Below, in pieces: positions 31,788-62,984 of a DNA stretch of 64,000 nucleotides. The stretch covers positions 1,088,001 to 1,152,000 of the forward strand of contig CAWFQK010000004.1 of assembly GCA_963817955.1 (NCBI GenBank), given 5' to 3'. The notes beneath the pieces were generated by a model. That model ran no database searches. It had not been told where the DNA came from and saw only the letters and a program-made list of their open reading frames with translations. This stretch comes from an uncultured Gemmatimonadaceae bacterium (GTDB lineage Bacteria > Gemmatimonadota > Gemmatimonadetes > Gemmatimonadales > Gemmatimonadaceae). The stretch's first letter is position 1. The number at the start of each line of letters is the position of its first letter. The translations under genes were made by a program, and so were the position numbers.

Positions 31788-31822
31788 GGGACACGGGACA
31801 CGGGACACGGGACACGGGACAA
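31788..31822. repeat. Heptamer tandem repeat (gggacac)x5
   Basis: Read directly from the sequence; last unit imperfect. Confidence 0.9.
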
Positions 31823-31862
31823 CGGCTGACTGCGTGCTAACTGCGCTAACTGCGGGCTTGGG

Positions 31863-32108
31863 CTCCGGGTGTTGACCGGCTGGATGTCGCTGGCTGCTCC
31901 GTAGCGGTCGGCCCACCGGTCGGCGAGTTTCGAGTTGCCAGTTGTGAGTTATGCGTTATGCGTTTTTAGCAACCCACAACTCACGACTCACAACTGGACA
32001 CCCGAACCTCGCCGACCGGCGATGGTGGCCTGCAAGCCAGGCACCCTGGTGCGCATGACCAGTATACTGACAACTCACAACTCACAACTGATCACTGATC
32101 ACTGATCA
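31863..32108 (+). repeat. Left arm of a ~245-bp inverted repeat, itself containing an internal hairpin and heptamer runs
   Basis: Reverse complement of 34049-34300 with scattered mismatches. Confidence 0.9.
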
Positions 32109-32118
32109 TCCGCGAAGC

Positions 32119-32325
32119 CCTGTCATCCTGAGCGAAGCGAAGGATCTCTGTGACCGACAGAACAGCTTTTCAACGGTAGAGGTCGCAGCGAACTGCAGAG
32201 AACTGCGGAGAGAAGCACGTATAGGTCGAACGCGAGAGGCGATTCTCCATTCGGGGGTCGAAGCCGGCTGGTCACGAGACCCTACGGTTCGCTCAGATTG
32301 ACACGGCGTCGCTCAGGATGACAGG
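32119..32325. repeat. REP-like inverted pair
   Basis: cctgtcatcctgagcga (32119-32135) and its perfect reverse complement tcgctcaggatgacagg (32309-32325). Confidence 0.8.
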
Positions 32326-32424
32326 CGCCTCGTGTCCGCGGCCAACGGGGCGCCGAAATGGACCTGCATACCGACGGGCGCCCGATGCGCCGGGGTCGAA
32401 AACTGGGAGCAACCGCCTCGGGCG

Positions 32425-33840
32425 GTTGCGATGTCGTCTCAGGGAGTTGCGATGTCGTCTCAGGGAGTTGCGAGTCGCCTCGGGGAACTGCGATGTCGCC
32501 TCCCTGCGTTGGGATATCGTCTCGGAGCGTTGGGGTGTCGTCTCAGCGAGTTGGAGTAGCGTCTCGCCGAGTTGCAGTGCCGTGTCGACGCGCTACAGTG
32601 GCAGCTCGACGCGTTCGGCTGACGGCTCAATGCGTTGGAGTGGCAGCTCTCCGAGTTGAGGTCTCGTCTCGACGGGTTGGGGTACCCGCTCGATGAGTTA
32701 GGGTGCCCGGTCGACGAGTTAGGGTGCTGTCTCGATGGGTTAGGATGGGATCTCGAAGGGTTGGGGTGCCGTCTCGACGCGCTCCGATGGCGTCTCGGCG
32801 AGTTAGGGTGCCGTCTCGACGTGCTCCGATTGCGTCTGGGCGAGTTTGAGTGCTCTCTCGCCGAGTTGCGATCTCAGCTCGATGCGCTCGGAAAGCAGCT
32901 CGGCATCGGGCGCTGCTGTCTCGGCACGCAAGAGAGTCGCCTCGCGGCGATGCGATGCGATCTCGCCGCGGTCGCCTCCCCCCTCGGTCCGTTGCGATGC
33001 CTGCTAGCAAGGCGAGGATCCTGGCTCGCCGCGCTGGGATCCTCGCTCGATCCGTTGCGATCCGATCTGGACACGCGACGATCCTTGCTTGGCGCGTTGG
33101 GGTGCCAACTTGCCGCGTTGCATTGCCATGTCTCCGGGTTGCGATGCTCGGTCGACAGGCTCGCGTTCGATCTCGGCGCGATCGCATTCCATCTCGACGC
33201 GATCGAATTCGATCTCGGCACGATCGATCCCATCTCGGCACGATCGAATTCGATCTCGGCACGATCGATCCCATCTCGACGCGATCGAATTCGATCTCGG
33301 CGTGATCGATCCTATCTCGCCACGATCGAATTCGATCTCGGTGTGATCGATCCCATCTCGCCACGATCGAACTCGATTTCGGCACGATCGATCCCATCTC
33401 GCCACGATCGAATTCGATCTCGGCACGATCGATCCCATCTCGCCACGATCGCATTCCGTCTCGGTGCGATCGCATTCCGTCTCGGCGGAATCGCATTCCA
33501 TCTCGGCACGATCGATCCCATCTCGGCACGATCGCATTCCGTCTCGGCGCGATCGCATTCCGTCTCGGCGCGATCGCATTCCGTCTCGGCGGAATTGCAT
33601 TCGATCTCGGCGCGACCGCATTCCATCTCGCCACGATCGATCCCATCTCGCCACGATCGCATTCCGTCTCGGCGGAATTGCATTCGATCTCGGCGCGACC
33701 GCATTCCATCTCGCCACGATCGATCCCATCTCGCCACGATCGCATTCCGTCTCGGCGGAATTGCATTCGATCTCGGCGCGACCGCATTCCATCTCGCCAC
33801 GATCGACTTCGATCTCGCCACGATCGATCCCGCCTCGCCA
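32425..33840. repeat. ~1.4 kb satellite with 21-bp period (about 67 units), 20-bp variants and higher-order repeats
   Basis: Units such as gttgcgatgtcgtctcaggga on the left and tctcggcacgatcgaattcga / tctcggcacgatcgatccca on the right. Confidence 0.92.
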
Positions 33841-34048
33841 CTCGAGCGTCGGGCGATGATCGTAGTCCTATATATTAGTTCCGAAATTGGGGGGCAGCGC
33901 AAGGGTCAATATGACTGATTGACCAAAAACCGACATTTTTGAACGTTTCAGCGTTAGTACTAGTAGAGAGGTACGGCAGTCCCGTGTCCCGTGGTTGTTG
34001 TGACCCGGGGATAACAGGGGTTCGCGCGGGACGACAGGCGTCGAGGGG

Positions 34049-34300
34049 GATCAGTGATCAGTGATCAGTGATCAGTTGGCAGTTGTGAGTTGTCAGTATA
34101 CGGGTCATGCGCACCAGGGCGCCTGGTTCGCGGGCCACTATCGCCGGTCGGCGAGGTTCGGGTGTCCAGTTGTGAGTTGTGAGTTGTGCGTGTTTTAAAA
34201 CGCGCAACGCATCACTCGCAACTGGCAACTCGAACCTCGCCGACCGGTGGGCCGACCGCTACGGAGCAGCCAGCGACATCCAGCCGGTCACCACCCGGAG
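34049..34300 (-). repeat. Right arm of the ~245-bp inverted repeat
   Basis: Reverse complement of 31863-32108. Confidence 0.9.
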
Positions 34301-42127: not shown

Positions 42128-42160
42128 GTGTCTCGTGTCTCGTGTCTCGTGTCTCGTGTC
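42128..42160. repeat. Heptamer tandem repeat (gtgtctc)x4-5
   Basis: Read directly, immediately after a stop codon. Confidence 0.85.
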
Positions 42161-43128: not shown

Positions 43129-45678
43129 GTGTCCAACCCTTCCTCCACGTTGTTCACGTCCCCCGCCATCAGGGTGCTCGCGGTGCTTGGTCCCGCGGCG
43201 CTCATGCTCATGGTTGGCGCCATGGGTGCCACGACGTACGGTACGCTCCAAGCGCATAGCAGGCAGGTCGCGCAAACGCGCGACGTCATCGACCGAGGGA
43301 GGAGCGTTCTCGTCGATCTCCTCGACGCGGAGACGGGCGAGCGGGGATTCCTCATCACAGACGACACGCAATACCTCGAGCCGTATCAGCGCGGCACGGT
43401 GGCCTTGCGCGCCGACACGGCGGCGTTGCGTGCGCTGACGCGCGACGATGCTACCCAGCAGCGGCTGCTCGACAGGCTCACGGAGGTCGCCGCGGAGCGC
43501 GTCGCGCTGCTCGACACCGTCAAGACACGACGGCAGACGGACGGGCCAGCGGTCGCGCTGAAAGTGTTCCGCCAGAGTCGAGGCAAGGCACTGATGGACA
43601 GTGCACGCGTCATTATCGCGCGCATTCAGGACGAGGAGGGACGTCTGCTCGCCGCGCGTGAGGCAGCGGAGAGCCGCGCCGCGAATCGTCTCATCTTCGC
43701 GCTCGTGGCCGGCGCGGTGTTGGCGGCCCTATTCGCGTTTCTCATGAACGCGCTGCTCCACCGCAAGGCCGAGCGGATCGCCGCAAGCGAGCGCCTGACT
43801 TCGGAGCAGAACGAGCTGCTGCAGGAACAGACGCTCGAGCTGGAGTTGACCAACGAACAGCTTCATGATCAGCAGGCCGAGCTCGAGATGCAGACCGAGG
43901 AGTTGCAGGCCACCGCTGCGTACCTGGAGGAACGGACCGAGGCGCTCACGGAGAGCGAGGCGCGTTTCCGCGCCGTGTTCGAGCGATCGCGCGTCGGCAT
44001 GGCGCGCGTCTCATTCTCCGGAGCGCGGTGGCTCGAGGTGAACGACGCCTTCCGAGAGATGCTCGGATACACCCAGGACGAGTTCCTCGCTACTCCATGG
44101 CCCGAGATCACCCACCCGGACGACGTGGACTCGGATCTCATACCGTTCGGTCGTATGGCGGTGGGCGACCTCGAGTGGTATGCAGTCGAAAAACGCTTCA
44201 TCCATAAGTTCGGCCACCATGTGTGGGCGCGGCTCACTCTCTCGCTGGTGCGCGACTCGGCCGGGCGTCCGGACTATGAGATTGCCGTCATCGAGGATGT
44301 CAGCCGACAGCACGCGGCCGCGGCAGAGCGGGAGAGGTTGCTCGCCGCCGAGGAGCTGGCCCGCAGCCGAGCCGAGACGCTGCAGCACATCTCAGCCTCG
44401 CTATCCGCGGCGCGCACACCTGCTGACGTAGCCGCAGCGACCATCAGCGCCGGCATAGTCGCCGCGGACGCTTCGCGTGCGGCGGTCGGACTTCTCGACG
44501 ACGACAACGGGCGCACCGTTGAGCTCCTGGCGCACAGTGGATACACCGAGGCGCAAGTCGCGCGGTTGCTCGACATGCCCATGGGGGGGCTGCTCCCGTT
44601 GGCGGACCTCGTACGAACCCGTGCGGCCGTCCTGATCGGCCGGCATGATGAAACCGTCGTACGCTACCCCGCATTCGCCAAATGGATTGACGCTGCCGGC
44701 TTCCACGGATCCGCGATGTTCCCGCTCTTCGTCGGTCAGGGAGCAGAGGAACGCGTGCTGGGCTACCTCGGCTTCGGTTTTGAACGAGACCGCGAGTTCA
44801 CCGAGAGCGAGGTCGCGTTTCTCGAGACGGTAGCGCGTCTCTGCTCTCAGGCGCTCGACCGCGCGCGTGCGTACAACGCGGCGGAAGCGGCCCGCCACGA
44901 GGCCGAGGCGGCAAATCGGGCAAAATCGCAGTTCCTGGCAACGATGAGCCATGAGTTGCGCACACCGCTCAACGCCATCGCGGGCTACGCTGACCTAATG
45001 GAATTGGAGCTCCGGGGCCCGCTCACCGAATTGCAGCGCGCCGACCTCGCGCGTATCAAAGTCAGCGGGCAGCACTTGTTGAGCCTGATCAACGACGTCC
45101 TGAACTTTGCGAAGATCGAGGCCGGGCGGCTCGAGCTACAGTTCTCGCCCGCATCGGTGAGCGCCCTCGTTGCGGGGATCGATCCGCTCATCGCGCCGCA
45201 GTACGGTGCCCGCGGGCTCGCCTACGCCTTCGAGTGCGCCGACGACGCTGTCGTCTGGGCCGACGCCGAGAAAGTGCAACAGATCCTGCTCAACCTGCTC
45301 ACGAACGCGGGGAAGTTCACGGCCCCGGGAAACACGGTGACGGTCCAGTCCGAGCAGGATGACCATGTCGTGCGAATCCACGTCCGCGACCGCGGCCGCG
45401 GGATTCCCGCGGACAAGCTGGACCGCATCTTTGAGCCGTTCGTGCAAATCGATCGACACCTGACGCAGGCGAGCCAGCAAGGAGTGGGGCTTGGGCTCTC
45501 GATCAGCCGCGAGCTCGCACGGGCAATGGGAGGCGACCTCACTGCCGAGAGCACGCTCGGGGAGGGCTCGACGTTCACCCTGGTGCTCGTACGACACGAC
45601 CCAACGGCCGTCCGCTCTATCGGGAACCCGCTCACCGACGGCGCACAAGCAGCGTCGGTACGCCCGCTCACAGACTGA
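43129..45678 (+). CDS. CHASE3-PAS-GAF sensor histidine kinase
   Basis: DAETGERGFLITDD...YLEPY (CHASE3), coiled coil, PAS, GAF, MSHELRTPLN, NLLTNAGKFT, GVGLGL. Confidence 0.9.
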   Translation: MSNPSSTLFTSPAIRVLAVLGPAALMLMVGAMGATTYGTLQAHSRQVAQTRDVIDRGRSVLVDLLDAETGERGFLITDDTQYLEPYQRGTVALRADTAALRALTRDDATQQRLLDRLTEVAAERVALLDTVKTRRQTDGPAVALKVFRQSRGKALMDSARVIIARIQDEEGRLLAAREAAESRAANRLIFALVAGAVLAALFAFLMNALLHRKAERIAASERLTSEQNELLQEQTLELELTNEQLHDQQAELEMQTEELQATAAYLEERTEALTESEARFRAVFERSRVGMARVSFSGARWLEVNDAFREMLGYTQDEFLATPWPEITHPDDVDSDLIPFGRMAVGDLEWYAVEKRFIHKFGHHVWARLTLSLVRDSAGRPDYEIAVIEDVSRQHAAAAERERLLAAEELARSRAETLQHISASLSAARTPADVAAATISAGIVAADASRAAVGLLDDDNGRTVELLAHSGYTEAQVARLLDMPMGGLLPLADLVRTRAAVLIGRHDETVVRYPAFAKWIDAAGFHGSAMFPLFVGQGAEERVLGYLGFGFERDREFTESEVAFLETVARLCSQALDRARAYNAAEAARHEAEAANRAKSQFLATMSHELRTPLNAIAGYADLMELELRGPLTELQRADLARIKVSGQHLLSLINDVLNFAKIEAGRLELQFSPASVSALVAGIDPLIAPQYGARGLAYAFECADDAVVWADAEKVQQILLNLLTNAGKFTAPGNTVTVQSEQDDHVVRIHVRDRGRGIPADKLDRIFEPFVQIDRHLTQASQQGVGLGLSISRELARAMGGDLTAESTLGEGSTFTLVLVRHDPTAVRSIGNPLTDGAQAASVRPLTD

Positions 45679-45839
45679 CGGCGCGAACTGCTTACGGCGC
45701 CAACTCCCTGACTGCGCCAACTCCCTGACTGCGCCAACTCCCTGACTGCGCCAACTCCCTAAATACGCGAACTCCCTGACGGCGGCGTACGGCGCGGACT
45801 CCCTAAATACGCGAACTCCCTGACGGCGGCTTACGGCGC
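45677..45839 (+). repeat. 17-bp/10-bp composite repeat array 1
   Basis: Head gacggcgcgaactgct, then gccaactccctgactgc-type units, then an acggcggctt tail. Confidence 0.9.
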
Positions 45840-46307: not shown

Positions 46308-46815
46308 ATCAGCCTCCTGATTGAACGAGCGAACTGGGAGCACGCCATAAGAAGCCGTCTGGCCCGGAATCATATAATGGCGCGCCGAGCGCACGATTGC
46401 CAACGCAGGATCTGCTCGCCCGAATGCCCGACGGTAGAATCCACAGCGCCCTCTGTCACAGCCCCCCCGCTGATGACGGCGTCCGCAGGATGCCCGAGGC
46501 CATTCGAATCAGCCCCCCGAAATGCGGTCCATTGAGAAGCGCTCCTCCGGGATCGCGACACTTGTTGTCATCACCGTCCTGACCTCGATCGCGACCCTCG
46601 CGAATGGCTTTGCGTTCGGCGACGTTCCGATTGTCGCGAACAATCCGGGCGTCCACAGTCTGGCGCGGCTGTGAGATCTGTTTGGCCAGAGCTATTGGCC
46701 GCCGGAAGTGACGATGGCGCTCTATCGGCCCGTCCCCATGTGCGGCGAGTATGTTTTGAAGGAGACACTCGCTGCGAAGCACCCGCTGAAACAGTAGTTG
46801 GCGATTAGGGGGATC

Positions 46816-48258
46816 ATGCCGGACGCACCCGCTGAAGAACCAGGACCAGGACCAGAACCAGCCGACACCGTGCAGGCGCGCGACCTGGCGGAATCGTCGC
46901 GTAGCCCCCTCGGGCCATACGAGACTCTGCTGAGTCACACGCTGGCGCTGGTGGCCAATGGGGCAGAATTGCCTCGCGTGCTCGATTCCATTGTACGGGG
47001 CCTGGAGTCGGCGTATCCCGCGGCAGTGTGCAGCATCTCGTTGCTGGCTCGCGGACCGAAGCAGCTCGACAGTGCGCCAGTCCCAGGCCCATCAGATTTC
47101 TATAACGAAGCCCTCGCCCGCACCGAAACCTGCATAGGGTCATGCTGGTCTCAGCCAATCCGCGCCGCATCAGGCCAGACGTCGGGCACGCTCACCGTCA
47201 GGCATCGTGACGAGCGCACGCCCGGCGACGCCGACCTCGCCATCCTCGAACGATCCGCCCACCTCGCCGCCATTGCCGTCGAGCGGAGCATCGACACCGA
47301 TCGACTGCGTGAGAGTGACAGCTTGTTTCGCTTGCTGACCGAGGATACCCGATTCGTGGTCTGGAAGGTGGACCGCGATCTCCGTTTCACCTATATCAGC
47401 CCGGCGGATGAACGGTTGCGCGGCTACACGGCCGGCGAGATGATCGGTCGCTCCGTTCTCGAGATGTTCACCGAAGAAGGCATTGCCGCCCTCACCGAGA
47501 TCATGCACGCGAGGCGGGTGGCCGAACAGCACGGCACTCGGACGGGCAGCTTGACGTTCGAGTGCCAGCATCGCTGCAAGGATGGCAGGCTCCTGTGGGG
47601 AGAGATCTTCTCCACCCCCGTGCGTGACGCACACGGCGCGATCGTCGGCTTCCACGGCATCACTCGGGAAAACACGGAGCGCCGGCACATGGAGGAGCAG
47701 GTACGACAACTGGCCTTCTACGACACGCTCACCAACCTCCCCAATCGTCGTATGCTCGACGATCGCTTGAGCCAGACCATGGCGGCCAGCAAGCGCACTG
47801 GTCGCTGGGGAGCGCTGATGTTTCTCGACCTGGATAATTTCAAATCACTCAATGACACCCAGGGCCATGAGATCGGTGACCTGCTGCTGATCGAAGCAGC
47901 GAATCGACTGCGACGATGCGTGCGCGAGACGGACACCGTCGCACGTATTGGCGGCGATGAGTTCGTCGTGATGCTGAGCGGATTGGATGTGGATCCCGTC
48001 GTATCGAAATCCCAAGCGAAGACTGTGGCGGACAAGATCCGCACCACGCTCTTGGAACCGTACCGGCTGACGACGCAGCGCGAGGCGAACGCCGGCACCG
48101 TCGTTGAACATCACTGCACCGTGAGCATCGGCGTGGCGTTGTTCGCGGGTCATGGAGCCAGCGCGGAGAACATTCTCAAATGGGCTGATATGGCGATGTA
48201 TGGAGCGAAGGAGGAGGGGCGGAATCGGATACGAATTCATGACGGCGCGAACGGCTAA
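46816..48258 (+). CDS. GAF-PAS diguanylate cyclase
   Basis: YDTLTNLPNR, DLDNFKSLND and ARIGGDEF. Confidence 0.9.
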   Translation: MPDAPAEEPGPGPEPADTVQARDLAESSRSPLGPYETLLSHTLALVANGAELPRVLDSIVRGLESAYPAAVCSISLLARGPKQLDSAPVPGPSDFYNEALARTETCIGSCWSQPIRAASGQTSGTLTVRHRDERTPGDADLAILERSAHLAAIAVERSIDTDRLRESDSLFRLLTEDTRFVVWKVDRDLRFTYISPADERLRGYTAGEMIGRSVLEMFTEEGIAALTEIMHARRVAEQHGTRTGSLTFECQHRCKDGRLLWGEIFSTPVRDAHGAIVGFHGITRENTERRHMEEQVRQLAFYDTLTNLPNRRMLDDRLSQTMAASKRTGRWGALMFLDLDNFKSLNDTQGHEIGDLLLIEAANRLRRCVRETDTVARIGGDEFVVMLSGLDVDPVVSKSQAKTVADKIRTTLLEPYRLTTQREANAGTVVEHHCTVSIGVALFAGHGASAENILKWADMAMYGAKEEGRNRIRIHDGANG

Positions 48259-48415
48259 CGGCGCGGACTCCCTAACGGCGCGGACTCCCTGACGGCGCTG
48301 ACTCCCTAACTACGCTAACTCCCTGACGGCGCTGACTCCCTAACTACGCTAACTCCCTGACGGCGCGGACTCCCTGACGGCGGACTTACGGCGGACTTAC
48401 GGCGGCTTACGGCGC
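48241..48415 (+). repeat. 17-bp/10-bp composite repeat array 2
   Basis: Head gacggcgcgaacggct, seven 17-mers ending actccct, then acggcgg(a)ctt units. Confidence 0.9.
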
Positions 48416-58412: not shown

Positions 58413-58580
58413 ACCGCCGTCAGCCGCCGTAAACCGCCGTCAGCCGCCGTCAGCCGCCGTCAGGGAGTCAGCGCTGTTAGGGAGTCAGCGCAGTTAGGGA
58501 GTCAGCGCAGTTAGGGAGTCAGCGCAGTTAGGGAGTTGGCGCTGTGAGGGAGTCCGCGCCGTCAGCAGTTCGCGCCGTAA
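58413..58580 (-). repeat. 17-bp/10-bp composite repeat array 3 (reverse orientation)
   Basis: cagccgccgt units, then agggagtcagcgcagtt units, then head agcagttcgcgccgt. Confidence 0.9.
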
Positions 58581-59059
58581 ACCATCTCATACCACTCCTT
58601 CACCACCCCCCGGTACTCCGCCCACGCCCGAAACCCCTCGCAAGCCCACTCGCGCGCGGCCTCCTCGATCCGATCCCCCTGTCCAATCACGTCTGCAATC
58701 GTTCGAACTCCCACGAAACTCGGCGGCGTCATCCACCGAAACCGCCCCTTCATTTGAACGGCCCGTTGCAACAACGCGGGAGCAGCCTCGGTGGCGAGCC
58801 CCAGCTCGAGCTGTGCGTAGAGACTGATGAGATGCACGGCCACCGACTGAATTGTCTGCGGACCGGGACTCCCGGGATGCTGAACGGCGTAGGCATCGAC
58901 GCAGAGTTGGCGATACTTCACGGCTGCCGAATCGCTCATGAATCTGACGTTCAGCTCACCATTCATCGCCCAGCAACCAGGCGAGGCCGTCATGTAACGA
59001 TGGATGGGGCCTTCGATGCGCGGGACAACCGCGCCGCAGCCGACGCAACGCTCAGTCAG
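58562..59059 (-). CDS. DUF5946-like protein (probable CTG start)
   Basis: VDAYAVQHPG and QSVAVHLISL motifs; the frame extends upstream of 58993 through RCVGCGAVVPRIEGPIHRY to a CTG behind ggagag. Confidence 0.7.
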   Translation of the reverse strand: MTERCVGCGAVVPRIEGPIHRYMTASPGCWAMNGELNVRFMSDSAAVKYRQLCVDAYAVQHPGSPGPQTIQSVAVHLISLYAQLELGLATEAAPALLQRAVQMKGRFRWMTPPSFVGVRTIADVIGQGDRIEEAAREWACEGFRAWAEYRGVVKEWYEMVYGANC

Positions 59060-59240
59060 GTGGCTCTCCGAATGAAGTAATCGATACGCGCCACAACTTG
59101 TTCAAGTAGGCGCGGTCGCGGGCGGAGCGCTAGCCCGGAAGCGCCGGAGGACTATCCTTAAGATTGTCGCCGCACCTCCCGAAACCGGCCGACACATCAG
59201 CAACCGTCGCCACATGTCTCGTCCACTCATCCCACCTGTC

Positions 59241-60314
59241 ATGCGCCTATCCACCCTCGCCCTCGTTGCCGGGCTCCTCGCGTCGTCACCCGCCGGTGGC
59301 CAGAGACCCAGCGCCGTACCGGCCTCGCCGTGCACCACGCCAACGACGGTCTGCGAGCGCTGGATAACATTCGGCAGCGGACCGGCGCGATCGATGGTGT
59401 ACTCCACCTATCCGCTCGACGTGCCGAACGCCAGGATCACACGGGCCCTCGTCATGGTCCACGGTGCCGGGCGCAACGCCGACCATTATTTCGAAACGTC
59501 GGCCGCAGCGGGGTTTCTCGCCGGCGCGCTCAACAACACGATCATCATCGCCCCACGCTACATCGCGGGCACCGACAAACCGTCGGCAAATGAAGTCATG
59601 TGGCCCGAGGGCGGCAACTCCTGGCGCGCCGGCGGCATGTCGCCGACCAATCCGTCGATCTCCGCGTTCGACTTCATGGACGAGATCGTGCGGAAGCTCG
59701 CCGACAAGAAGACGTTCCCGAATCTCACGAAGATCGTCGTCGCCGGGCATTCGGCAGGCGGCCAATTCGCCACGCGCTATGAGATGACGAACAAGGTCCA
59801 CGGGACGCCGGGTGTGAGCCTCAGCTACGTCGTCGCCAATCCATCGAGCTACGCCTGGCCCGCCGCCGTCAGACCGCTCCCCACCGGTGACGCCGATCCG
59901 GCGACCGCCGACAAGGAAGCGCTGGGACCGACTGGAGAAAAGGTGCACACGCAGTTCACCTACGGCCCCTTCGACACCACCAAAGCCCGCAACTACAATC
60001 GCTGGCCCGCAGGGCTGGAGAATCGATCCGGGTACACCGCGGGCATGAGCGACGATCAATTGAAGCGGCAGCTCGTCGAACGTCCGACGACGTACCTCCT
60101 CGGTCAGGTGGACGTGCTGCCGCTCGGCGGATTCGATTCGTCACCGACGGCCATGGCCCAGGGCCCGACACGCCGGGCCCGCGGGGAAGCGTTCGTCAAA
60201 TACGTCGATGAGACGCTTGGCGCGAAGCATATTGCAATCATCGTTCCGGAATGTGGGCATAATGATAGGTGTATATTTACTACTAATATTGTATTTCCGA
60301 GTATTTTTCCGTGA
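59241..60314 (+). CDS. Secreted alpha/beta hydrolase
   Basis: Signal peptide, VHGAGRN, GHSAGGQF nucleophile elbow, C-terminal CGHN. Confidence 0.85.
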   Translation: MRLSTLALVAGLLASSPAGGQRPSAVPASPCTTPTTVCERWITFGSGPARSMVYSTYPLDVPNARITRALVMVHGAGRNADHYFETSAAAGFLAGALNNTIIIAPRYIAGTDKPSANEVMWPEGGNSWRAGGMSPTNPSISAFDFMDEIVRKLADKKTFPNLTKIVVAGHSAGGQFATRYEMTNKVHGTPGVSLSYVVANPSSYAWPAAVRPLPTGDADPATADKEALGPTGEKVHTQFTYGPFDTTKARNYNRWPAGLENRSGYTAGMSDDQLKRQLVERPTTYLLGQVDVLPLGGFDSSPTAMAQGPTRRARGEAFVKYVDETLGAKHIAIIVPECGHNDRCIFTTNIVFPSIFP

Positions 60315-60508
60315 ACGGCGCGAACTGCTGACGGCGCTGACTCCCTGACTGCGCCAACTCCCTGAACGGCGCTGACTCCCTGAACGGCGCCAACTCCCTG
60401 ACGGCGCTAACTCCCTGACGGCGGCTAACGGCGCCAACTCCCTGAACTGCGCGGACTCCCTGACGGCGGCTTACGGCGGCACACGGCGGTTTACGGCGGT
60501 TTACGGCG
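60313..60508 (+). repeat. 17-bp/10-bp composite repeat array 4
   Basis: Head acggcgcgaactgct, 17/18-mers ending actccct, acggcggttt tail. Confidence 0.9.
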
Positions 60509-60592
60509 TGCGTCGATGCAGATGACACAGGTGCTCCCTGTAATTGGCCACGTCCGGCGCGAGGCAACTGAGTCAGTATGACCTCGATGTTT

Positions 60593-60824
60593 GCCGTCGT
60601 AAACCGTAAACCGCCGTCAGGGAGTCAGCGCCGTCAGGGAGTCAGCGTCGTAAGCCGCCGTCAGGGAGTAAGCGCCGTCAGGGAGTCAGCGTAGTTAGGG
60701 AGTTGGCGCCGTAAGCCGCCGTCAGGGAGTAAGCGCCGTCAGGGAGTCAGCGTAGTTAGGGAGTTGGCGCCCTCAGGGAGTTAGCGCCGTTCGGGTGTCA
60801 GCGCCCTCAGCAGTTCGCGCCGTC
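60593..60824 (-). repeat. 17-bp/10-bp composite repeat array 5 (reverse orientation)
   Basis: agggagtcagcgccgtc-type units ending in head agcagttcgcgccgtc. Confidence 0.9.
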
Positions 60825-60887
60825 CCCTCCCCTCAAACGGAATTTGCTACTATCTCTCCCCCACCCCCTTTCCCCCATCGGACTCCT

Positions 60888-62984
60888 ATGTCCCGCAAAC
60901 TCCTACTCCTGCTCGCTCTCGCTGCTGCTCTTCCCGGCCCTGCCGCATCGCAGGCCACCCCGAAACTCCCCGACCGAGCGGTCCGTCGCGACATCCCTCT
61001 CACCAACATGATCCGGCGTGCCTTCGCTGCCGGCACCCGCGACTCGACCGGACGTCCAGGCCGCAACTACTGGCAGCTCTGGACGGACTACACCATCAAT
61101 GCCCGTTTCGAACCCACGACGTCCACCGTCACGGGCCATGAAACGACTGTCATCCACAACCAGAGCGATTCCGCGATGCGCACGATCGTCATGCGCCTCG
61201 ACCAGAACATCTTCTCGCCGAACGTCCCGCGCGCCGAGCAAGTCACGGAGATCACCGACGGGATGAAGCTCACGAAACTCACCGTCAACGGGGAAGCCGT
61301 CGATCTCAATCCCCCGCCGGCTGGGCGCGGTGGCCGCGGCGCTGCTCCGCCGGCCGTGCGACTGGCGGCCTCGGGCATCAACACGACGTCCGCTCGCATC
61401 ACGCTCCCGAATCCCATTGCGGCCAAGGGCACGGCGACGATCGAGGCCGAATGGAGCTTCCGCGTGCCGCGCGCCGACAACGTCCGCGGCATTCGCATGG
61501 GGCGGTGGGCCGACACGCTGTATGAGGTTGCGCAATGGTATCCGCGCGTCGCGGTGTTCGACGATTTGCGACAGGGTGGGTGGGACACCGATCCGTACCT
61601 GGGCCCATCCGAGTTCTATAACAATTTCGGGCACTTCGATGTGAAGATCGACGTGCCGGCAGGCTGGATCGTCGGCGCCACGGGCGTTCTCCAGAATCCC
61701 CAGGAAGTGCTCTCGGCCACCGCCCGCGAGCGCCTCTCGCACGTACTGGAATCCGATTCCACTCGCACCATCGTCGGGGCGAACGAGCGTGGGCCTGGCG
61801 TCGCCACCGCGGCGGGCGACCGACTCGTCTGGCACTTCGTCGCCGACACCGCCGGCGACGTCGCGTGGGCAACGTCCAACCAATACGTTTGGGATGCTAC
61901 CCGCGCCACGATTCCGGGCAAGGGACCGATCCCGGTGAACATGTTGTACCTCCCGGGACATGCGACGGCATACGCCAACGGCGGGCCCGTCGCGCGACAC
62001 GCCCTCGAGTTCTACTCGAAACTCTGGATGCCGTATGCCTTCCCCGTGCTCACCATGGTTGACGGGCCAGAAGGCGGAATGGAATACCCCATGTTCATCA
62101 TGTCGAGCGTGGGTGCAGCAGACCACGAGACCGGACACGAGTGGTGGCCAATGATGGTCGGCACCAACGAGACCTGGTACGGCTTCATGGATGAGGGATT
62201 CAACCAGTACATGAACAGCCTGTCGCGATTCGACTCGCAGCACCAGCCGGCGAACCTGGATGGCCCGGGTCAGTCGTACGGACGCATGAGCGGCAACGAA
62301 ACGGAAGCGCCGCTCATGTGGGACGCGAACTACGGCGGCCCCAATTACTCGTTCCAGGCGTACTCCAAGGCGCCGATGATGCTCTCCATGCTCGGCGGCG
62401 TGGTGGGTGACAGCGCCGTGTGGCATGCGATGAGCGACTACGCAAAGGCGTGGCGGTTCAAGCATCCGTCGCCGTGGGACTATGCCTTCTTCATGAGCAA
62501 CGCGCTCAAGGACAAGCAGAAGGAACTTGGCTGGTTCTGGTACTACTGGCTCTTCACCACCGAGTCCGTGGACGGTTCGATCACCGGTATGAAGACTGCC
62601 GGCAACACAACCACCGTCACCGTTCGGCAAGACGGCCAGATGCCCTCGCCTGTGGTGCTCAAGGTGCAGTTCGCCCCGAAAGGTCCGGCGATCAAGCCAA
62701 TGCGCAACAGCAAAATGATCGACAGCGCGACGGCGATCGTCACATGGCCCGTGGACGTCTGGTTCGGCGGGAGCAAGACGTTCAAGGCCGACCTCACCTT
62801 CGGCGCGCGGAAGATCGTGCGCGTGAAGCTCGACCCGGGCTGTCGCTTTCCCGACCGTGACACGGCCGACAACGCATGGCCTCGCGATACCGCAACAGTG
62901 ACTCTCGCGGGCGGCCGCGGCGCTGGTGGCGGCGGTGGCGGCGGTGGCGGCGGCGGTCGTGGTGGACCGGCGTGCACGCCTTGA
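60888..62984 (+). CDS. Secreted M1 family metallopeptidase
   Basis: Signal peptide, GGMEYPMF, HETGHEWWP...DEGF; Gly-rich tail; paralog of 24853..26892. Confidence 0.88.
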   Translation: MSRKLLLLLALAAALPGPAASQATPKLPDRAVRRDIPLTNMIRRAFAAGTRDSTGRPGRNYWQLWTDYTINARFEPTTSTVTGHETTVIHNQSDSAMRTIVMRLDQNIFSPNVPRAEQVTEITDGMKLTKLTVNGEAVDLNPPPAGRGGRGAAPPAVRLAASGINTTSARITLPNPIAAKGTATIEAEWSFRVPRADNVRGIRMGRWADTLYEVAQWYPRVAVFDDLRQGGWDTDPYLGPSEFYNNFGHFDVKIDVPAGWIVGATGVLQNPQEVLSATARERLSHVLESDSTRTIVGANERGPGVATAAGDRLVWHFVADTAGDVAWATSNQYVWDATRATIPGKGPIPVNMLYLPGHATAYANGGPVARHALEFYSKLWMPYAFPVLTMVDGPEGGMEYPMFIMSSVGAADHETGHEWWPMMVGTNETWYGFMDEGFNQYMNSLSRFDSQHQPANLDGPGQSYGRMSGNETEAPLMWDANYGGPNYSFQAYSKAPMMLSMLGGVVGDSAVWHAMSDYAKAWRFKHPSPWDYAFFMSNALKDKQKELGWFWYYWLFTTESVDGSITGMKTAGNTTTVTVRQDGQMPSPVVLKVQFAPKGPAIKPMRNSKMIDSATAIVTWPVDVWFGGSKTFKADLTFGARKIVRVKLDPGCRFPDRDTADNAWPRDTATVTLAGGRGAGGGGGGGGGGGRGGPACTP

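Follow-up and report, generated by a model that had tools for sequence, protein, structure and literature searches.

Orientation-dependent cytosine depletion beside the heads of polar 17-bp repeat arrays in an uncultured Gemmatimonadaceae bacterium

A 64,000-nt stretch of the genome of an uncultured Gemmatimonadaceae bacterium from soil (contig CAWFQK010000004.1, here C4, positions C4:1088001-1152000; hereafter the window) contains five polar arrays of 17-bp tandem repeats, and 20 such arrays were identified genome-wide. Next to the first unit, or head, of most of these arrays the DNA has lost cytosine on the array's own strand, and on that side and that strand only. The depletion decays with distance from the head, and it is independent of coding status, gene direction and inferred replication direction. 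Comparison with array-free relatives shows it to be derived at four of the five loci that were polarised, the exception being an RNase G/E-like gene; where the change could be scored, it is accelerated and one-way. We tentatively favour, as the best reading of these observations, a head-anchored, outward and strand-asymmetric substitution pressure that is filtered by purifying selection. Positions without a contig prefix are those of the window.

The genome (4.53 Mb in nine contigs, approximately 64% GC, labelled G000 in our genome set) is metagenome-assembled, with approximately 6% of it missing from the assembly, and relatives of the window proteins carry titles of Gemmatimonadaceae metagenome-assembled genomes. 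Its arrays are confined to contigs C1 and C4 and share one layout, in which a head unit (ACGGCGCGAAC[T/G]GCT) is followed by further 17-bp units (e.g., GACGGCGCTGACTCCCT) and then by a tail of approximately 10-bp repeats (GGCGGCTTAC-like). Seven tail-to-tail pairs are found among the 20 arrays, and in this they are intergenic inverted pairs like those of repetitive extragenic palindromes and bacterial interspersed mosaic elements (REP/BIME). In the window, arrays 4 and 5 form such a pair, with inverted-repeat arms that stop exactly at the heads (60315 and 60823), and arrays 1, 2 and 3 are single (Table 1). The 17-mers are contiguous in the arrays examined, with no CRISPR-type unique spacers between units, and neither the window nor five array loci gave an Rfam match. 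At all ten junctions with a co-oriented gene, the stop codon of that gene lies at most 6 nt from the first unit or inside it, being often the unit's own TGA (in the window at 45676, 48256, 58562 and 60312), and in two flanks of divergent genes a perfect TTGACA was seen by eye 8-9 nt from the head. The arrays therefore extend to the very edge of functional sequence. A pair of elements separated by 6.5 kb shows approximately 98% identity but unrelated flanks, of which three of four are depleted.

The depletion was measured as the number of C in the 80 nt upstream of each outermost head, on the array's own strand. The 20 counts are 7, 8, 9, 9, 10, 10, 10, 11, 11, 12, 12, 13, 13, 13, 14, 14, 15, 19, 22 and 33, so that 17 flanks hold 15 or fewer, the depletion being confined to the array strand. 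For comparison, the mean over every 80-nt window of the genome is 25.6 C (standard deviation 4.0), and 0.66% of these windows have 15 or fewer; the binomial probability of at least 17 depleted flanks among 20 is approximately 1e-34. The undepleted flanks are those of array 1 (33 C) and of the arrays at C1:221652 (22 C) and C1:252403 (19 C). On the tail side, the flanks are ordinary at all 20 arrays (C 18-34, G 17-34). With distance from the head, the C fraction rises from 0.12-0.17 in the first 60 nt to 0.21-0.25 at 61-140 nt and to approximately 0.3 from 141 nt onwards, and longer arrays have poorer flanks (Spearman rho -0.49, p = 0.03, n = 20). As controls, we took 3018 crudely called gene 3' ends, the last 80 nt of which have a mean of 25.0 C and hold 15 or fewer in 37 cases (1.2%); nine of the 20 gene ends lowest in C adjoin arrays, and only two genes of this crude set have no C-ending codon among their last 23, both abutting arrays. 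Upstream of 3011 crudely called gene starts, the sense strand holds 15 or fewer G per 80 nt in 59 cases (2%).

These counts bear out a sequence-only reading of the window, which had proposed that C, mostly at synonymous sites, is lost from the array's own strand on the upstream side of the head; genome-wide this is the case in 17 of 20 flanks, one of which (that of the RNase G/E-like gene) is equally C-poor in relatives that lack the array. The individual observations of that reading were reproduced on recounting: of the final 23 sense codons in the hydrolase gene before array 4, none ends in C and 15 end in T; 60231-60314 has a GC content of 34.5% (about 35% by the earlier hand count); none of the 21 codons of the GGDEF gene at 48178-48240 ends in C (7 C in 63 nt); the + strand is G-poor beyond array 5 (7 G and 43 C in the 87 nt of 60824-60910) and beyond array 3 (26 G and 76 C in the 160 nt of 58581-58740); and array 1 shows no effect. 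The skew was also correctly said to follow the orientation of the array and not the position of the gene. Depleted flanks were found at nine of ten co-oriented gene 3' ends, in five of six 5' regions of divergent genes and in three of four other contexts, with no difference between the first two classes (p = 0.38). Depletion affects the coding strand in the former class and the template strand in the latter; thus, which strand is depleted depends on the orientation of the array and not on the neighbouring gene. Depletion is alike in depth in non-coding flanks (7-19 C) and in coding flanks (9-14 C). Replication direction was inferred from the cumulative GC skew, which peaks at C4 approximately 350-400 kb and suggests a replication terminus there, within approximately 50-90 kb of the pair at C4:306 kb; it had no effect, as heads facing the fork have a mean of 11.9 C and the others of 14.4 (p = 0.59).

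Comparison with array-free relatives indicates in which direction the composition has changed. The hydrolase gene closes with 23 sense codons of which none is C-ending, 15 are T-, five G- and three A-ending; in 98 orthologue loci, drawn from two partly overlapping genome sets with one of 100 skipped, the corresponding stretch contains between 6 and 17 C-ending (median 12) and between 0 and 9 T-ending codons, and none of these loci is followed by an array; the T-ending codons are therefore not shared with array-free orthologues. When the hydrolase gene is scored against a consensus drawn from its 30 best orthologues, 16 of 22 third positions are changed in the flank, compared with 38 of 115 in the gene body. 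The flank has 20 changes, 13 of which remove C and none of which creates it (C>T 10, C>A 2, C>G 1, G>A 4, G>T 2, A>T 1); over the 173 codons before it, C is lost in 22 changes and gained in 16. The gene at C1:244442-245863 has two C-ending codons among its last 27, against 7-20 in eight orthologues, with residues shifted to C-free codons (e.g., Pro, Ala and His to Arg, Gly and Arg), and the gene at C4:1617386-1618219 has four of 27, with 10 C in 81 nt, against 7-18 and 19-32, respectively, in ten orthologues, with changes of Ala to Gly/Val and of CGN-coded Arg to Lys. Reading frames and protein sequences are intact at all three genes. Beside array 5, the count in the 80 nt before the start codon at 60888 is 39 for C and 10 for G, the ranges in 21 relatives, a few of whose starts were assigned approximately, being 16-33 and 15-30, respectively. 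This tract covers the promoter and 5' region of the gene: a -10-like element (tactat at 60848-60853; tagtat/tactat) is kept in common with the relatives inside the tract, and the GGAG that relatives have ahead of the start reads GGAC here, a weakened ribosome-binding motif. The fifth polarised locus is the gene before C4:306418, which reads like RNase G/E and which we take to be rng. Its frame changes near C4:305575 (gene at C4:305400-306409), which reflects either a real frameshift or an assembly error; in relatives the gene is one open frame of 540-650 residues, followed in most of them by other tandem arrays. For the GGDEF and DUF5946 genes, no orthologues were found in 30 genomes at the thresholds used, and both flanks are unpolarised.

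With regard to what takes the place of C, third positions in the nine coding flanks change from 0.41 to 0.14 in C, from 0.36 to 0.53 in G and from 0.12 to 0.23 in T, and first-position C falls from 0.28 to 0.15, via replacement of CGN by AGR and of CTG by TTG codons. Across all flanks, the G fraction reaches 0.43-0.45. The hydrolase tract is T-rich because it has many two-fold Y-ending codons. We found no shared motif or specific k-mers in the flanks beyond their composition. A G-quadruplex or G-run element was considered and rejected, the motif being present in two of 17 flanks with a mean of 2.0 in shuffled sequences (GGGG, z = -0.7), as were an avoidance of complementarity to the array core (CGCCG occurs five times with 1.2 expected) and outward promoters as a general feature (a sigma-70 consensus match in one of 20 flanks, 0.32 in shuffles). 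An integrated element bringing a replacement gene end was likewise rejected, the C-terminus of the hydrolase being unique in the genome, as were symmetric break or hairpin models, which disagree with the normal tail sides and with the lack of complementarity between the flanks of the 60315-60823 pair, the arms of which end at the heads.

We favour a substitution pressure at the level of DNA because the force acts alike on coding, promoter and non-coding sequence, overriding some protein conservation, and because the loss is one-way, accelerated, decaying with distance and blind to gene and replication direction. Such a pressure would begin at the first unit and run outwards over a variable distance, up to approximately 150 nt, draining C from the array strand or, equivalently, G from the opposite strand. 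Its cause may be mutational, via recurrent exposure or low-fidelity resynthesis of one strand beside the head following nicking, R-loop formation or strand displacement. Purifying selection would then retain what proteins and promoters need, and within genes the loss would surface as synonymous recoding of C-ending into T- or G-ending codons, as codon-family switches (CGN to AGR, CTG to TTG) and as tolerated residue changes (Ala to Gly/Val, Pro/His to Arg), while the preference of this genome for G+C would refill free sites with G, the sole strong base that is not drained. A gain of G could thus be compatible with a drain of C, since G would be the only stable strong base left in a G+C-favouring genome. 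A cause in the DNA fits the tract of array 5 better than a function in messenger RNA (mRNA), since that tract spans a -10-like element and upstream DNA and weakens the GGAG motif. A process that needs time also fits array 1, which looks young, has very uniform units and shows no effect. It is possible, although we give this further step less credence, that the arrays carry or recruit a cis-acting machine that repeatedly opens or resynthesises approximately 100 nt outwards, and thereby act as directional local mutators that recode gene ends and promoters.

Several observations weigh against a substitution pressure, or against its simplest forms. C is replaced mostly by G and less by T, which is not the signature of a deaminase, and the residual C shows no dinucleotide bias, with observed-to-expected ratios of AC, CC, GC and TC near those of the genome (e.g., TC 1.33 vs 1.28). 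The C-poor end of the presumed rng gene (five of 27 codons C-ending) is matched by 27 array-free relatives (4-13, median 7), and one relative with an array at that place has 10 C-ending codons. Near-identical array copies within unrelated depleted flanks would call for very fast change of the flanks or for gene conversion between copies. Related arrays exist in 13 of 30 other genomes of the genus, with the core ACGGCGC in common and a different variable half of the unit, and at 66 of their starts, some with imperfectly defined heads, the mean is 21.1 C with a background of 26.4, with 15 or fewer in seven of 66 (background 0.8%) and 25 or more in 15 of 66. The exact head-plus-unit pattern had no match in metagenome contigs, and six heads on five such contigs, found with a looser head pattern, hold 15-23 C. 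The effect is thus present elsewhere but strong only in the present genome, and since it is much weaker in related species, a lineage-specific factor has to be assumed. Candidate machinery gives no lead: the reverse transcriptase (RT) domain RVT_1 occurs in eight of 31 genus genomes and is absent from the array-rich genomes G014, G018, G019, G043 and G015; Y1_Tnp/RAYT (PF01797) has no match in G000 and occurs in seven of the 30 other genomes, mostly array-free; and UDG-family genes are present in all 31. Finally, a compositional signal by itself does not discriminate between biased mutation and weak selection acting at every site. The earlier proposal is therefore borne out as to the pattern, and its mechanism, in which nicking, an R-loop or strand displacement exposes one strand to deamination, is putative; plain deamination is not demonstrated because C goes mainly to G, no dinucleotide signature is seen and the distribution of the arrays is matched by that of neither RT nor RAYT; the RT gene that this proposal had led one to look for alongside the arrays does not follow them.

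The tract could instead be a selected element of the array, an unstructured, G-poor and C-rich RNA on the opposite strand that, like a Rho utilisation (rut) site, stops transcripts leaving the array, or an unstructured spacer beside a highly structured repeat, with selection instead of mutation purging C from the array strand. We consider this the main rival, and a serious one, but less probable than the substitution pressure. In its favour, the tracts have a fitting length of approximately 80-100 nt and a C:G ratio on the opposite strand of typically 3-4 (e.g., 39:10), the genome has two open reading frames with a Rho RNA-binding domain (C2:841513 and C1:65298; 641 and 610 residues), the edge of the hydrolase tract is fairly sharp, near 60228, and the effect is tied to the array and not to neighbouring genes. 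An RNA element is difficult to reconcile with the tract of array 5, half of which lies outside the mRNA and which weakens a ribosome-binding motif, or with the opposite strand of the hydrolase tract, which is A-rich and not C-rich (17 C and 13 G in 87 nt). Flanks in which the loss entails amino-acid changes are depleted to the same degree, related arrays of other species are mostly without it, and the scarcity of outward promoter-like sites, the composition-level G-runs and the lack of avoidance of array-core complements, given above, also speak against selection for the tract. Arrays that insert into, or persist only at, sites already poor in C and rich in G would make the skew older than the array. 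The array-free relatives of the presumed rng gene, the near-identical copies within unrelated, already depleted flanks and the stop codons abutting arrays in ten of ten co-oriented cases would fit such a choice of target; we regard it as improbable, because at three genes and one 5' region the array-free orthologues all lack the C-poor state (at genus-level distance) and the hydrolase flank has diverged approximately twice as fast as the gene body, in one direction only.

Of a similar or slightly lower order is the probability that the array is a polar barrier stalling replication forks or RNA polymerases at the head, so that a single-stranded gap of approximately 100 nt on the array strand is then damaged. 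This predicts strand, side and length scale correctly, but heads that face the fork are no more depleted than others, most pairs are depleted on both flanks, and transcription away from the head or towards it makes no difference to how depleted a flank is. It is very improbable that mutagenic homing of a retroelement, similar to that of diversity-generating retroelements (DGRs) but directed at C, rewrites the gene end beside the array. A tract at gene 3' ends that lies beside a GC-rich cis element and decays with distance has the right geometry; however, non-coding flanks are affected too, no second, template-like copy of any of the 20 flanks (150 nt each) was found in the genome (blastn, E <= 1e-3), and RTs are not co-distributed with the arrays. 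With single-copy flanks and a single-copy hydrolase C-terminus, there is neither a template repeat nor a displaced gene end. The only RVT_1 match in the genome, at C4:732 kb, is of retron type according to PADLOC, lies 416 kb away and stands beside an HmaA-like helicase. Chance, a general gene-end effect or an assembly artefact can hardly be entertained as the explanation: the genome is indeed assembled from a metagenome, in nine contigs, but the binomial probability, the gene-end and gene-start controls and the intact reading frames and proteins all contradict it, and a 151-nt contig from a public run, which may stem from the source sample, spans 60220-60370 without a difference. Contigs from the three DNA runs were short and of low depth, and no RNA run was listed as containing the locus.

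The substitution pressure that we favour has partial counterparts in known systems. Bacterial GC skew and the heavy/light asymmetry of vertebrate mitochondrial DNA are strand-specific losses of C that are most pronounced at sites free of constraint and are attributed to the time for which a strand is single-stranded, and the mitochondrial asymmetry forms a gradient with distance from a start point that resembles the gradient from the head. The array tract, unlike these, extends over approximately 100 nt and not a replichore, is anchored at the head independently of inferred replication and gene direction, and is far larger in magnitude (C down to 0.12-0.17). In DGRs, base-specific change affects approximately 100-150 bp at the 3' end of a gene beside a polar GC-rich cis element, a geometry close to that of the arrays. 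The arrays, however, affect C and not A (13 of 20 hydrolase flank changes remove C and six remove G), have no template repeat and no RT co-distributed or in the window, include non-coding flanks and show one-way loss in place of diversification. Strand-coordinated loss of C beside tandem repeats with a G-rich non-template strand is also known from AID-targeted, R-loop-prone and G-rich immunoglobulin switch regions and from kataegis around single-stranded DNA. The change at the hydrolase gene (13 C removed, none created) is similarly coordinated, but the present case is bacterial, without dinucleotide signature or deaminase candidate, and the arrays themselves are not C-depleted. Most flanks resemble a rut site in having an opposite strand that is C-rich and G-poor over approximately 80 nt; they differ in the A-rich hydrolase tract, in the promoter overlapped by the tract of array 5 and in transcription of the opposite strand, which is only putative. 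With REP/BIME the arrays share an intergenic location, often as inverted pairs directly after stop codons, but their units are 17-bp tandem repeats with head and tail and not hairpins, and no RAYT was found in the genome; we know of no compositional scar beside REPs. In geometry, the proposed cis-acting mutator resembles engineered combinations of a nick and an error-prone polymerase. A full-text literature search, as far as its result listings and the opening lines of abstracts extend, turned up no account of a comparable scar.

If the cause is mutational, the arrays would be the first cis element of a bacterial chromosome to impose a local, polar and strand-specific mutation bias on its neighbours, one that overrides codon usage and some amino-acid conservation, with implications for natural targeted mutagenesis, for the biology of repeats and for mutation-rate variation along genomes. 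If it is selective, they would represent a new composite intergenic element, an array plus a tract defined by composition only, that forces recoding of neighbouring genes. Either way, the signal is large, easily scored and testable, and scans for codon usage or horizontal transfer may mislead near such repeats.

The coordinates of the arrays, tracts and adjoining genes in the window are given in Table 1. The window genes include no nuclease, deaminase or RT, and the neighbours are ordinary sensory or metabolic genes; the 698-residue protein encoded after array 5 had no Pfam match at E <= 1e-4.

Table 1. Arrays, their head-side flanks and adjoining genes, in window positions.
Feature	Position	Strand	Remarks
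Array 1, single	45676-45839	+	TGA is the stop codon of a histidine-kinase gene; units very uniform
Head flank of array 1	45598-45677	+	33 C in 80 nt, no depletion
GGDEF gene	46798-48258	+	
C-poor tract before head of array 2	48162-48241	+	12 C in 80 nt; 3' end of GGDEF gene
Array 2, single	48240-48414	+	GGDEF reading frame enters the head by 5 codons
Array 3, single	58414-58578	-	
C-poor tract before head of array 3	58579-58740	-	11 C in first 80 nt, 15 in next 80
DUF5946 gene	58562-58993		3' end is the C-poor tract of array 3
Alpha/beta-hydrolase gene	59214-60314	+	Pfam Abhydrolase_6; C-terminal 45 residues conserved in all orthologue loci compared
C-poor, AT-rich tract before array 4	60228-60314	+	last 28 hydrolase codons; 13 C in 87 nt, 34.5% GC
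Array 4	60315-60508	+	head ACGGCGCGAACTGCT, 17-bp units, tail of approximately 10-bp repeats
Array 5, tail-to-tail partner of array 4	60598-60823	-	head at 60823-60809
C-poor tract before head of array 5	60824-60903	-	7 C, 40 G in 80 nt of the - strand
Gene for 698-residue, secreted-looking protein	60888-62984	+	HExxH motif; upstream 80 nt with 39 C, 10 G (+ strand)

Elsewhere in the genome, the retron-type RT belongs to a defence-like neighbourhood (C4:729866-736798) with a Mutator-family transposase, an HmaA-like SNF2 helicase fragment and a NOV_C-domain protein, and one CsrA gene is present at C7:57485. At least two further multi-copy elements were noticed among C-poor windows (e.g., C1:396476, 447771 and 456956; C5:32393), one consisting of (AGTTGTG)n arrays that flank a conserved core of approximately 70 nt, and the other of a purine-rich arm followed by a conserved CCACAATCATTCCGCC segment. 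Repeats of a second family, built from 7-bp units (GGGACAC/GAGACAC), were counted at 119-128 places, among them 31788-31821 and 42128-42160 of the window. They often immediately follow a stop codon, and the ten inverted pairs seen are all heads-out; in the 80 nt preceding these repeats, C is also mildly depleted (mean 20.4-20.7 vs 25.6), to which decayed edge units may contribute. The window also contains a dense block of tandem repeats (31788-34240), in which a 21-bp unit is repeated approximately 32 times at 33161-33826 with a higher-order period of 83 bp, further 21/42-bp arrays lie at 32425-32860, and several of the 7-bp arrays are found on both sides.

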